This document shows positions 23,301-24,988 of a DNA stretch of 56,420 bases, one piece after another. This DNA comes from a virus. Lineage: Duplodnaviria; Caudoviricetes. The stretch's first letter is position 1; each line of letters opens with the position of its first letter. The position numbers and the translations under genes were made by a program. Location: positions 1 to 56,420 of IMG/VR virus record IMGVR_UViG_3300032218_003378. One strand, written 5' to 3'. Below the pieces are notes generated by a model. The model worked only from the letters and a program-made list of their open reading frames with translations, was not told where the DNA came from and did not search any database.

Positions 23301-24988
23301 GACATATTAGAGGAGCAGGAACAGCAACATCTGATTCTATTCCCGCTTACCTTTCAAATGGCGAATATGTAATTAAAGCAGATACGGTAAGTAAATACGG
23401 CACAGAATTTTTTGATTCATTAAATGCACAACATTTTGCTAATGGTAGCTTAGGCGGAGTATCAGCATTATGGAACAAATTTAAAAATCAGTCTAATAAA
23501 TCTGCTACAGGGTCTATGATGACGGGATTACTTGAAAATTTAGGTACCCTAGGGCAAACTGCATTACATAGTTTAGCCCCACAATTCATTTCAAACACAA
23601 GTAAAAAACAAAATAAAGATTTACAAGAATTTTCTGGTATACCTTCAATATATAGATCATTAGCAGGAAAAACATCACAAAGTCCATTTTCATTACAGAC
23701 TGGTAATAAAAAAGCTGGAAAATGGATGGATTATTTATCTGCAGCAACTATGTTTCTTCCTACAAAAGGAGCAGTTCCAGCAGCAGAACATTCAGCTTTA
23801 ACACGTTCATTATCCGCAGATACAATTAAATCTATTAAAACTTATCAAGCGAGTATTGCTGAATATAGATCTAGTTTAAATAAAATAAACAGTGGTGAAT
23901 TTTTTGAAGGAAAGCCTTATTTTAAGCTAGAAGACAAACCAATATTTATAAAAAATTATGAAGATCTAATTGCTGATTCTTTAAGATTAATTAAATTAGG
24001 TAGAAAAACTGATACGCCTCCAGGAGGACTTCCTTCACTTCAATTATATACAGACAGACCTATGTTTGCACAAAATCAAGACTGGGGAATAATTAATACA
24101 ATGCTTACCAGAAAAACAATTGGTAAAGATCAAACTGTATATAGAGCACTCAGTCAAAATGATTTGGCAGAAATTGTGGGTTATAAAAAAGGGTCTCCTT
24201 GGGAAAGCATTACAAATAGATGGAAAACAAATGCAACAGAATTAATTGCAAAATCTGGAAAACCAGCACCAAATTTTAATGACCCAGCAGCAGCAGCGTT
24301 TAGAGATTTTGATAAAGGTATTAATATTAATGATTCATGGATACCAGGTCTTGGAAAATCTGCCACAGATAGCCTAGAGTGGGCTAAATCAATAGCAGCA
24401 AAAGGTGGAACTGGTGGTGGAGAAATGAATGCCATTGCAAAAATAATTTTAGGTAAAGATATTAAAGGAATTTCAAACCTAATGGATTTAGGCCTAGGTG
24501 GAAATAGATATAATTTAGCTGACAAAGAACAATTTATTGCACCATTTACAGAATATGTTTTAAAAGAAATTAATCCATTTGCACACAAAATTCCAGGGAC
24601 AGGTGAATTTGTTGGGGAAGGAAAACATCAATACTGGTCAGGTGGTAATAATTTTTCTAAATTCATAAGTGAATATGTTTTTGAAGCTGTTCGTACACTA
24701 CCTTCTGGTCACATACCTCATTTTTCAAAAGGTGGATTTGCTAATTATAAATTACCTTCATTTGACGTAGGAACAAATTACGTTACTAACGATATGATTG
24801 CTCAAATACATAAAGGTGAAGCAATTATTCCTGCAAGCCAAAATAATGGTATAATGGGTAGTACATTCAATATTACAGTAAATGCGGGATCTAATGCAGA
24901 TGCCAATGATATTGCTAAAGCAGTAATGGATACTATAAAGCGTAATACTGCTATGACAAGTACGGATAGAAGGTTTGTTTCACAATGA
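17330..24988 (+). CDS. Tail tape measure protein with inserted cargo domains (ADP-ribosyltransferase-like near C-terminus)
   Basis: 2552 aa after the chaperones; Ala-rich helical core (WGKNTQWAGRQL, AVENQTSTSLQDL), SPS motif, GG..G...D..PA.L..GE.VI motifs, C-terminal FNITVNA..DA.DIA..V. Confidence 0.92.
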   Translation: MDLRLNIVALGDFSSVNSQIKLLQEKVIALQSNLAGVGINPNMAKDLNAMNAAFKQTMLSTNQFTVSTVKLTSETEKFGQQLEAGKLKLTDYYNIIKRRSSEATTQMKALAIEQTKLQNSVIMNDPTKQGVLSVFTPTTINKVANATKIAANEANLYAIAVNKGSQALINWGKNTQWAGRQLTVGLSVPLMLFGQQATSVFKDVNTELVRLQKVYGTGLVQPSKAALSEIKREVLSLSKELASSMGMAVKDTAAMAADLAATGLQGKDLLSATRESMRLTKLGELDTQKAMQATISLQNVYKLSTEKLSGAVNFLNAVENQTSTSLQDLVDGIPRVGPIVKQLGGDFKDTAIMMVAMKEAGVPAAQSANAIKSALASLINPTSAAKKAFMDYGISVESIATSTGGNPIKMIMALQDALKGLAPLAQAQLIEKMFGKFQEARIQALITNLGAVNSQTKTAFELANATDTQLSKIAKGELNTAIESTTGRFQRAVESMKANLIPIGEKILDFATKLLNFGNSIAKIFDSLPGPLKSLAGALAVGVALAGPIIMLTGLLGNFVGFLIRGAFNLKQLATGGKTLGTMLTPELIAAKNASQIFDAGLMSNVESIDLLNSAIKNLTINMEGMLAAMSATRGIGSVIARSAQGVPGFAGPTKYATGGFVKGNPSEGDIHPALLTGGEAVIPYPQSMKYSGFISRMIQGTLPKHNAGKHYHPHPQGQPNTPIGLNDKQGEMENGEIAFIGPSKSMAIDRSKARGAPATLQGSAEYISAASGNREAIASESRKAESRISAIGATPSALEQLKNYTQPDLQHLGTSHVTGPLNDQKVWLLSQLGLGSGAENGLLNLFSKPEKLTEDAMKKLREAANKLKLTVSKEEQLVVEEEFRKISVGEQPHSKIGTQLYGKFTESIVKEVEADAAKIRSEGKKPTSKWIKGVDKDGKIILEGRTRTAFHANQYLEARGSGRLRAQEDLIASNYVTPSNSGKNLTEVKQWAKDNPGVNATDRVFDPTSINARKVEYQKTLQQELKMLQDAGKQQTIEYKKIQENLLQIQKMKDNESLMLEIKNSRDKLLTLQEGSAEYTAVARKLGQQFNQGLALGISQDTLVAVAGKKIANAAITAVATTQKSKSPSFVARMLGRWFGIGYDKGIQDEIPATIIAGAELAGAAEIGASGGKGLKGLFKGGIGKGAGAGMAAMMIAPMITPQLAKVPGVGKELGTSASWASMASMTMNPYIIGAAAVAGFAYGGIQHLIEIEKRHEAQAKATFTASTNAMQFFGQSIANTEHQLSNFTQTVTTYDGESEILASNLKYTNNELNSFKKLITSLPTNDPLSLIIEKIKETHNSGSAAKVAQDFVNTQMAINGISKENADKLIQLILVLGGHSDIAASTSASLPTQLGAIKKLLSDSSGNAKTLQTNLGALSNLAVNTTSWEQFKAILDGIAQSGLSASQTVQGLYNYLMGIGDVKAAQAVVQLGQAGYDAFSANAVAQKLTAGGYNVDFSGMGKTSGKTLAFENAADFAKQLNDPKSALNKAINVVDAATLKSGGGTNPGKISPTLSAAELKKLNDRIAKEEKSLKIEKDKKAILDKQLKTQRDITSEIQRQQQFNLSKTDLENQIRLANASGDFMKAALLQQQLTGTTVDFANQGNLNDLQSQADKQAELVSSMQLALDEDKAALQKNTDAINANTAVKSSNGNGTTSLTGKGGNLTLPGQGGTAIPGLSDMTEKAARQSGFTGKNWMVTKKDAKGNDYKTLSDEARSFLVQQFPESAAVGGFTYQGRQYNYDTQKGKYIDVGAEGPNAPAPNSATVNKVTTFSTGSAKTLFDAKTNAYAQAKKVNYNSDQGIQFGFAGKTYSTDVLQNIYGADYNNQSIDSQINDAEAKKTTIAMVKAQLALDKATAKLKSDQLAQAAAQKKFNTASSKMKAAQTKYNKAKAGAAKTAAATALNSAKTELNTAKSGLDKYPASLIISDNKAVSSAKTALTKARGYADGGHIRGAGTATSDSIPAYLSNGEYVIKADTVSKYGTEFFDSLNAQHFANGSLGGVSALWNKFKNQSNKSATGSMMTGLLENLGTLGQTALHSLAPQFISNTSKKQNKDLQEFSGIPSIYRSLAGKTSQSPFSLQTGNKKAGKWMDYLSAATMFLPTKGAVPAAEHSALTRSLSADTIKSIKTYQASIAEYRSSLNKINSGEFFEGKPYFKLEDKPIFIKNYEDLIADSLRLIKLGRKTDTPPGGLPSLQLYTDRPMFAQNQDWGIINTMLTRKTIGKDQTVYRALSQNDLAEIVGYKKGSPWESITNRWKTNATELIAKSGKPAPNFNDPAAAAFRDFDKGININDSWIPGLGKSATDSLEWAKSIAAKGGTGGGEMNAIAKIILGKDIKGISNLMDLGLGGNRYNLADKEQFIAPFTEYVLKEINPFAHKIPGTGEFVGEGKHQYWSGGNNFSKFISEYVFEAVRTLPSGHIPHFSKGGFANYKLPSFDVGTNYVTNDMIAQIHKGEAIIPASQNNGIMGSTFNITVNAGSNADANDIAKAVMDTIKRNTAMTSTDRRFVSQ
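24847..24855 (+). promoter_or_regulatory. Possible internal extended -10 promoter TGGTATAAT in 3' end of tape measure gene
   Basis: Perfect match to the intergenic motif, 130 nt upstream of the next gene; could be chance in AT-rich DNA. Confidence 0.4.

Follow-up and report, generated by a model that had tools for sequence, protein, structure and literature searches.

The tape measure protein (TMP) whose gene occupies 17330..24988 (+) in IMGVR_UViG_3300032218_003378, a linear virus record from IMG/VR that is 56,420 bases long and an estimated ~53% complete (analysed at its full length and called the window below), appears to hold in its C-terminal cargo module a divergent mono-ADP-ribosyltransferase of the R-S-E class, which the phage would inject as an early host-modifying effector. 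We put the probability of this reading at about 0.58. It is carried by the ADP-ribosyltransferase (ART) fold that structure prediction shows for the domain, by the identity of the carrier as a true TMP, and by an invariant Arg, Ser-x-Thr and Glu that the model places on the strands typical of ARTs. An earlier note on this DNA had proposed an ART-like domain within the TMP at 23435-24735; a globular ART domain does lie inside that span, but its core is narrower, ~aa 2225-2456 (24002..24697 (+)) as delimited by AlphaFold2, VIA-align and Foldseek, and follows a linker and a helical hairpin.

The TMP gene is one unbroken frame of 2552 aa with a TTG start. As the earlier note had proposed, its product is recognisable as a tape measure protein: Pfam identifies PF10145 (PhageMin_Tail, E 3.4e-31), whose core occupies aa 238-435 (18041..18634 (+)), and the protein matches 12 PHROG tape-measure families, the best being phrog_10030 (E 5.9e-103). 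Besides this core, it has the great length and helical body of a TMP and lies between tail chaperone-sized open reading frames (ORFs) and the distal tail genes. The gene order, with portal, protease and capsid followed by the TMP and a minor tail protein, also supports this identity. By these sequence features, ORF 17330-24988 is a true tape measure protein.

To model the domain, we used aa 2170-2480 (311 residues). AlphaFold2 reached a pLDDT of only 33.8 from the single sequence; with the 32-row alignment A2 as input, the mean pLDDT was 88.4 and the pTM 0.81, with 203 of the 311 residues at pLDDT ≥90 and values below 50 in the last 16 residues only. Comparing this model with 48,161 PDB representatives by VIA-align revealed that all 19 chains at Z ≥8 (Z 8.7-13.1) are R-S-E ADP-ribosyltransferases or ART-like domains: a Listeria ART-ARH toxin (8za7_B, 13.1), VIP2 (1qs1, 13.1), CPILE-a (12.8), C3stau2 (12.6), C3bot2 (12.5), Certhrax (12.4 and 12.3), C2-I (11.7), ExoS and C3larvin (11.0 each), Vis (10.7), ART2.2 (10.3), the ART toxin/immunity pair 6drh (10.3), which we take to be Tre1, SpvB (10.1), anthrax lethal factor (9.9), XopAI (9.5, two rows), HopU1 (9.1) and an Rhs toxin domain (8.7). 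These matches span model residues ~56-287 with 140-163 aligned residues, at an rmsd of 2.9-4.0 Å in 17 rows and 5.1-5.3 Å in the two XopAI rows. From rank 20 on, matches are confined to the N-terminal helical hairpin (model residues 1-60), which meets only coiled-coil hairpins at Z ≤7.5 (rows 20-50). This hairpin, formed by model helices 2-19 and 31-57, corresponds to aa 2170-2226 (23837..24007 (+)) and precedes the ART core; the linker before it (aa 2036-2169, 23435..23836 (+)) opens the cargo module after the second copy of a Gly-rich motif and, as read from the sequences, is conserved with the related protein P0004 (P and L numbers are our handles for relatives).

Foldseek, which the earlier note had named together with AlphaFold2 as the check on its proposal, likewise grouped the domain with ARTs of the C3, VIP2 and Alt-Mod types. 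Its PDB search returned 92 matches (E ≤1e-3); at the head of the list stood C3bot1, C2-I, VIP2, Certhrax, CDTa and iota, the first three with a probability of 1.00. Against BFVD the count at this threshold was 41, and ModA, ModB, VIP2-like toxin and MuF-ART fusion were among the names of the proteins matched; of the 50 BFVD matches listed, not one carries the name of a tape measure protein. AlphaFold2, VIA-align and Foldseek agree on the ART core fold, which in this class is a split beta-sheet with the NAD cleft. On this modelling, it is nearly certain that the domain has the ART fold, and the model places it firmly among the C3/VIP2/Alt-Mod type ADP-ribosyltransferases.

Invariant candidates for the residues that define the R-S-E class are found in this core in the usual order. 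Conservation was counted in A2 (32 rows, some of them near-duplicates) over the rows covering each column, with core columns checked by eye. A2 omits P0003, P0004, P0005, P0006 and P0017, for which the near-identical or related slices L001, L002, L003, L004 and L006 stand in, as well as P0019, for which its close relatives P0018 and P0020 stand; among the near-duplicates, L012 and P0026 are identical over the domain, L015 and P0013 are identical over 107 aa, and L002 and P0009 are 96% identical. Firstly, the first core strand (model strand 99-104) carries a Y-R-[AG]-L-S motif whose Arg, R2272 (24143..24145 (+), AGA), is present in 28/28 rows and always follows an aromatic residue (Y 23/28, F 5/28); secondly, the second core strand (174-177) carries S2344-A-T2346 (24359..24367 (+), TCT GCC ACA), an S-x-T form of the STS motif in which Ser and Thr are each kept in 30/30 rows, and a helix (180-189) follows it; thirdly, E2400 (24527..24529 (+), GAA), the presumed catalytic Glu, is kept in 32/32 rows and lies at the start of model strand 231-234, after an ARTT-like loop. 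These are the three positions that the earlier note had picked by eye: its coordinates, which put R2272 at 24143, S-A-T from 24359 and E2400 at 24527, are exact, and the strings it quoted (L..YT...I..L.....DQTVYR, GKSATDSLEWAKS and DKEQFIAPFTEYVLKEI) are present in the translation. On sequence alone the ART reading would be a mere pattern, because the C-terminal 517 aa have no Pfam or PDB sequence match; since the residues are conserved across A2 and the predicted fold is that of an ART, a chance pattern is unlikely.

Two further conserved elements belong to this family. A Gly-rich loop, G-G-T-G-G-G (aa 2359-2364, 24404..24421 (+)), lies between the post-STS helix and the next strand, with G2363 kept in 30/30, G2364 in 31/31 and T2361 in 28/30 rows; it is possibly a phosphate-nicotinamide loop. 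A Walker-type P-loop was considered for this element and rejected, as it has no GK[ST] end and its sole support is a noise-level PDB match; the best PDB sequence matches, to histone H2A and a P-loop ATPase (E 0.03-0.06), were dismissed as noise. The second element is the pair E2448-Y2449 (24671..24676 (+)) on the last long strand (model strand 275-287), in which both residues are kept in 32/32 rows.

For a comparison at the sequence level, we built a profile of nine T4-like ModA/ModB sequences, whose invariant columns include R73, S99, E171 and E173 (T4 ModB numbering). Aligning it by hhalign with a 27-sequence core profile of the family gave a probability of 65 (pairwise E 6.1e-5) over the half that runs from the Arg to the STS motif, pairing YRgLS with LyRGvs (R2272 with R73) and KS.T with SFs (S2344 with S99) and skipping a 46-column insert. 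A second alignment of the family, A3, reached a probability of 27 against the Mod profile, with the Ser again aligned to S99, and the single T4 ModB and ModA sequences gave weak local matches (4.7 and 0.4, respectively). For the C-terminal half of the domain, hhalign obtained no alignment to the Mod profile. Because this half is not alignable to the Mod family, we infer the equivalence of E2400 and the catalytic Glu of the ExE motif from the fold only.

Relatives of the domain are few, and nearly all are TMPs. When 1.84 billion representative proteins were scanned in full with aa 2170-2480, 24 came up at E ≤1e-3, the query included, 18 of them at ≤1e-10 and 9 at ≤1e-30; word-indexed searches added P0003, P0005, P0006 and P0028, the last being all that the 'longer' protein search contributed. 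One candidate, P0027, consists of eight weak 35-aa repeats (E 3e-4); it is likely a chance match and was kept out of all alignments. PF10145 is present on P0001-P0006 (2552-4212 aa), and PHROG TMP families match three of six further long proteins (P0015, P0019 and P0023, with P0007, P0025 and P0022 giving no match), while the short relatives are C-terminal TMP fragments that end in the terminal motif of the window's TMP. The relatives keep the module at 25-63% identity. Contig scans located the domain at 13 viral and 4 metagenome loci, and 185,579 species genomes yielded no relative (0/23 candidate stretches). In the distant lineages L005 and L010, ORFs of more than 1348 aa, which extend beyond the edge of the locus, carry the domain 74-154 aa from their end, and the downstream order is that of the window, an ORF of 157-213 aa and then a large ORF. 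As judged from these sequences, the module is a rare, TMP-associated family of uncultured phages, found nearly always in the C-terminal parts of giant TMPs.

Some relatives carry other material in the same region. P0003 (and L001) has an OmpA-family domain (PF00691) beside the ART in its C-terminal region; in P0002 the ART is followed by ~300 aa that include an HExxH-like string, and in P0009 an unrecognised stretch of ~170 aa lies beside it, neither with a Pfam match. The extra modules of these three proteins suggest an exchangeable cargo slot. The ART domains of P0007 (aa 595-842 of 1703) and P0025 occupy a central position in large proteins without a TMP, PHROG or Pfam match, and a search of viral contigs for the context of P0007 found nothing; the carrier in these two is possibly another virion or injected protein.

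Several observations weigh against the injected mono-ART that we favour. No Pfam ART family (e.g. ADPrib_exo_Tox) was detected in any of the 32 members at E ≤1, and neither phmmer nor a profile search found a PDB sequence match for the C-terminal region. The effective diversity of A2 is low (Neff ~3), with hhalign keeping 27 of its 32 rows, and tblastn at E ≤0.01 found no relative in 50,697 GenBank phage records, i.e. no cultured relative. The assignment of E2400 follows its placement on the strand, and E2448 is present as a second invariant Glu. Position 2398, two residues before E2400, is Ala in 11, Tyr in 9 and Asp in 6 of the 26 covering rows, and Glu or Gln in none. The structural matches themselves include ART-like folds, anthrax lethal factor and the XopAI rows, which are presumably inactive. 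For delivery, a folded domain of ~26 kDa per chain must fit in the tail tip or stay unfolded, and NAD+ is unavailable outside the cytoplasm, which leaves delivery uncertain. The module also need not stay in the virion, because in lambda, once the tail has been assembled, the TMP gpH is shortened by ~14 kDa in its glycine-rich C-terminal region (PMC12617516).

The composition of position 2398 bears directly on what the enzyme would modify. The earlier note had read D-K-E (GAC AAA GAA, 24521-24529) as a divergent form of ExE, a reading that fails across the family: because the first acidic residue is not conserved, the canonical dyad that specifies Arg or Asn is absent, and the family is a single-Glu variant, neither ExE nor QxE. 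In classical R-S-E toxins, Gln or Glu two residues before the catalytic Glu goes with Asn or Arg specificity. Since the residue at -2 is never Glu or Gln, the choice of acceptor probably does not follow the canonical ExE (Arg) or QxE (Asn) rule, and no acceptor can be named. An active NAD+ enzyme of ART fold, delivered by the TMP, might for this reason be something other than a protein Arg/Asn mono-ART, namely an NAD+ glycohydrolase or a transferase acting on nucleic acid or a small molecule. The lack of Gln or Glu at -2 in 26/26 rows, the family-specific Gly-rich loop, the second invariant Glu-Tyr pair and the failure of Pfam ART families to recognise any member are all consistent with this alternative. 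We nevertheless consider it unlikely: the closest structures are all protein-modifying ARTs, nothing in our data points to a nucleic-acid-binding surface, and depletion of NAD+ at the start of infection would presumably harm the phage.

A second alternative is that the domain is catalytically dead and is kept in the tail tip for its structure or for binding, e.g. to dock to tip proteins or to bind a component of the cell envelope. The presumably inactive ART-like domains among the matches (anthrax lethal factor at Z 9.9 and the XopAI rows) and the incomplete ExE dyad are compatible with such a role, as is the fact that the cargo so far described for TMPs has the envelope as its site of action (references in PMC12617516). 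Against it, the Arg, the Ser-x-Thr and the Glu are invariant over relatives down to 25-30% identity, which is hard to explain if the domain is purely structural, and the domain also occurs in P0007 and P0025, which lack TMP features. We judge this alternative quite unlikely, and the modelled fold with its conserved residues makes it likely that the domain is an active NAD-using enzyme. Because Pfam does not see the family, the ART superfamily, on the evidence of the model, gains a new sequence family with it, one that has an unusual single-Glu signature and a new carrier. An ESM Atlas search with 23837-24769 (+) placed the region nearest to DUF4765 (PF15962) clusters at 0.82-0.83, which is below the reliability level of the tool and serves as a lead only. 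Pfam searches with the whole TMP and two C-terminal pieces returned PF10145 alone and no ART family.

How the mono-ART would reach its target can be outlined from the position of the module. In siphophages the C-terminus of the TMP lies at the tail tip, and the TMP is expelled ahead of the DNA. Because the module sits just upstream of the conserved, tip-proximal C-terminus, it would be among the first parts out of the tail when the TMP is expelled at infection. ARTs require NAD+, which is cytoplasmic. In the simplest model, each TMP chain contributes one copy, so that a few per virion would reach the host cytoplasm at or before DNA entry, where the domain would bind NAD+ and transfer ADP-ribose; for Ur-lambda, six TMP chains are described (PMC12617516). 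Modification of a host component would then bring about immediate takeover, as T4 Alt does on RNA polymerase, or disarm a defence. We hold it to be somewhat more likely than not that the TMP delivers the domain to the host cytoplasm, where it would act early as an effector.

An immunity protein would be unneeded under this mechanism, because the enzyme would be made late in a cell about to lyse. The earlier note had remarked that no immunity-like gene follows the TMP, which it took to fit an enzyme that might become active only after release. The record indeed contains no ADP-ribosylglycohydrolase (ARH) or Macro domain, but because it is only ~53% complete, their absence from the whole phage is not established. 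The ORF directly 3' of the TMP (24985..25482 (+), 165 aa) matches phrog_1194, of unknown function, and no immunity-like features were found in it.

The TMP contains three copies of a ~35-aa Gly-rich motif, GG ... [DS][ST][IV]PA.L[ST].GE.V[IV], located by motif scan at ~19295-19387 (~aa 656-686), ~23288-23380 (~aa 1987-2017) and ~24725-24835 or, more widely drawn, 24725..24859 (+) (~aa 2466-2502 or 2466-2510, near the C-terminal end). Copies 2 and 3 bracket the ART cargo module. The third aligns with the C-terminal ends of related TMP fragments and is the stretch of the 23435-24988 piece (residues 440-471) matched by phrog_25966. The motif recurs in related TMPs, and it is the stretch matched by PHROG TMP families in P0015, P0019 and P0023. 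By analogy with the cleavage of lambda gpH, the copies could be module boundaries or processing sites, and the module here could be released or even lost. The corresponding alternative, that the ART acts inside the cell that produces it, or is taken off before the virion has been completed, as in the conversion of gpH to gpH*, so that no effector is injected, draws on the ~14-kDa loss from a glycine-rich region (PMC12617516) and on the Gly-rich copies that flank the module, but it is improbable, given that a late soluble enzyme would need no TMP fusion, that the fusion is kept at the same C-terminal position across distant TMP lineages, and that beyond the module the protein continues into the conserved C-terminal TMP motif.

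An injected mono-ART on a TMP can be set beside the phage-encoded ARTs already described. T4 Alt, ModA and ModB are, like the domain here, ARTs of the R-S-E class encoded by a phage, and models of the ModA/ModB type are among the BFVD fold matches. Alt is packaged in the head and rides in the capsid, and ModA and ModB are free early proteins, whereas the domain here is part of a TMP. The T4-like Mod family keeps the ExE motif, with E171 and E173 both invariant, whereas this family keeps a single Glu and shows no detectable similarity in the C-terminal half. Alt is a virion ART that acts at time zero (PMC7824862). Fusions of MuF with VIP2, such as gp4 of Microbacterium phage Percival, place an ART on a virion protein that is presumed to be delivered with the DNA (PMC7302621), and ART domains occur in polyvalent virion proteins (PMC5512222), a paper with 0 occurrences of 'tape measure'. 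MuF-toxin fusions resemble the present case in that an ART is fused to a virion protein, and such fusions are among the BFVD matches (minor capsid protein, head morphogenesis, MuF-like fusion). Their carrier, however, is a head protein, MuF or portal-associated, and the carrier here is the TMP, in which a full-length Pfam search found PF10145 only and no MuF or other polyvalent carrier domain.

TMPs with enzymatic cargo are also known: TM4 has an Rpf-like motif, phiIPLA35 a muramidase, and others have lytic transglycosylase or peptidase domains, all used at entry. Their action is on peptidoglycan, outside the membrane, and requires no cofactor; an ART depends on NAD+ and on a target that are both cytoplasmic. 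Cell-wall hydrolases thus provide the precedent for a globular enzyme within a TMP (cited in PMC12617516). A parallel in architecture comes from the Sle1-type effectors of actinobacterial contractile injection systems, which have a TMP-related N-terminus and a variable C-terminal functional domain; one such C-terminal module is toxic and has a cognate immunity protein (PMC13277306). Like the TMP here, they combine a TMP-like helical carrier with an exchangeable C-terminal module. They differ in being cargo of phage-tail-like particles and not of infectious phages, and the available part of that source reports no ART domain among them.

Among bacterial toxins, the domain finds its closest structural counterparts in the C3 exoenzymes and in the enzymatic components of the VIP2, iota, C2-I, CDTa and Certhrax binary-toxin group, at Z 11.7-13.1 over 145-157 aligned residues; its Arg, its Ser-x-Thr and its presumed catalytic Glu come in the order that Arg, Ser-x-Ser/Thr and Glu have on the core strands of these toxins. 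Compared with these C3/VIP2-type toxins, the domain shows 9-19% identity in structural alignments and no Pfam or PDB sequence match, has the strands of the Arg and the STS motif separated by an insert of ~70 aa, carries a Gly-rich loop and only one Glu, and would differ in its delivery and in its target, which here would be bacterial.

Phage-injected ARTs (T4 Alt and the MuF fusions) and enzyme-bearing TMPs (cell-wall hydrolases) are thus each known, and an NAD-dependent cytoplasmic enzyme built into a TMP would join the two. Literature searches over openly available papers, most of them covered by title and the start of the abstract, found no description of a TMP-borne ART. If the reading is true, part of the TMP reaches the cytoplasm in functional form, a point still open in siphophage entry, and takeover or anti-defence enzymes are carried by tails and not by heads alone. 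Our data suggest that, by a hitherto undescribed route, the phage may send an enzyme that modifies the host into the cell before its DNA. A wider and doubtful extension is that giant TMPs of uncultured siphophages are effector-injection platforms like the carriers of type VI secretion and contractile injection systems, with a C-terminal cargo slot that is bracketed by Gly-rich motifs and takes exchangeable modules (the single-Glu ART, OmpA-like and others). The ART would in that case be the first phage enzyme into the cell, modifying a non-canonical acceptor (nucleic acid, or an NAD-linked or other defence component) to secure the incoming DNA.

Upstream of its cargo module, the TMP has a hydrophobic stretch at ~aa 532-568 (18923..19033 (+); Kyte-Doolittle 19-residue mean above 1.6 at window starts 532-549), which may be the membrane segment of the TMP. 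The head-tail module of the record encodes a portal (8429-10021), a maturation protease (10050-11441 (+)), a capsid-like protein (11467-12588), an adaptor and an Ig-domain tail protein, and beyond the ORF 3' of the TMP lies a minor tail protein of 2075 aa with a TIG domain (25482..31709 (+); phrog_10359, E 1.4e-36). Replication genes for DNA pol III alpha, DnaB and RecA are also present. For the head maturation protease, the nearest counterparts (~40% identity) come from Streptomyces siphophages of ~130 kb, which make up 127 of 139 matching records. Streptomyces is not assignable as the host, because the G+C content of the window is ~29-39%; by its sequence, the phage is a distant, low-G+C relative of these siphophages.

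Two other large genes of the record have domain matches. Directly upstream of the portal, an ORF of 1923 aa (2267-8038 (+)) contains three CBM_4_9 carbohydrate-binding stretches and has a weak PHROG minor-tail match, a position that is unusual for a giant tail- or fibre-like gene. Further downstream, an ORF of 1172 aa (33415-36933 (+)) has, over aa 501-546, a Pfam match (E 1.2e-11) to the FCCH domain of ubiquitin-activating enzyme E1, probably a small beta-domain of a tail protein.

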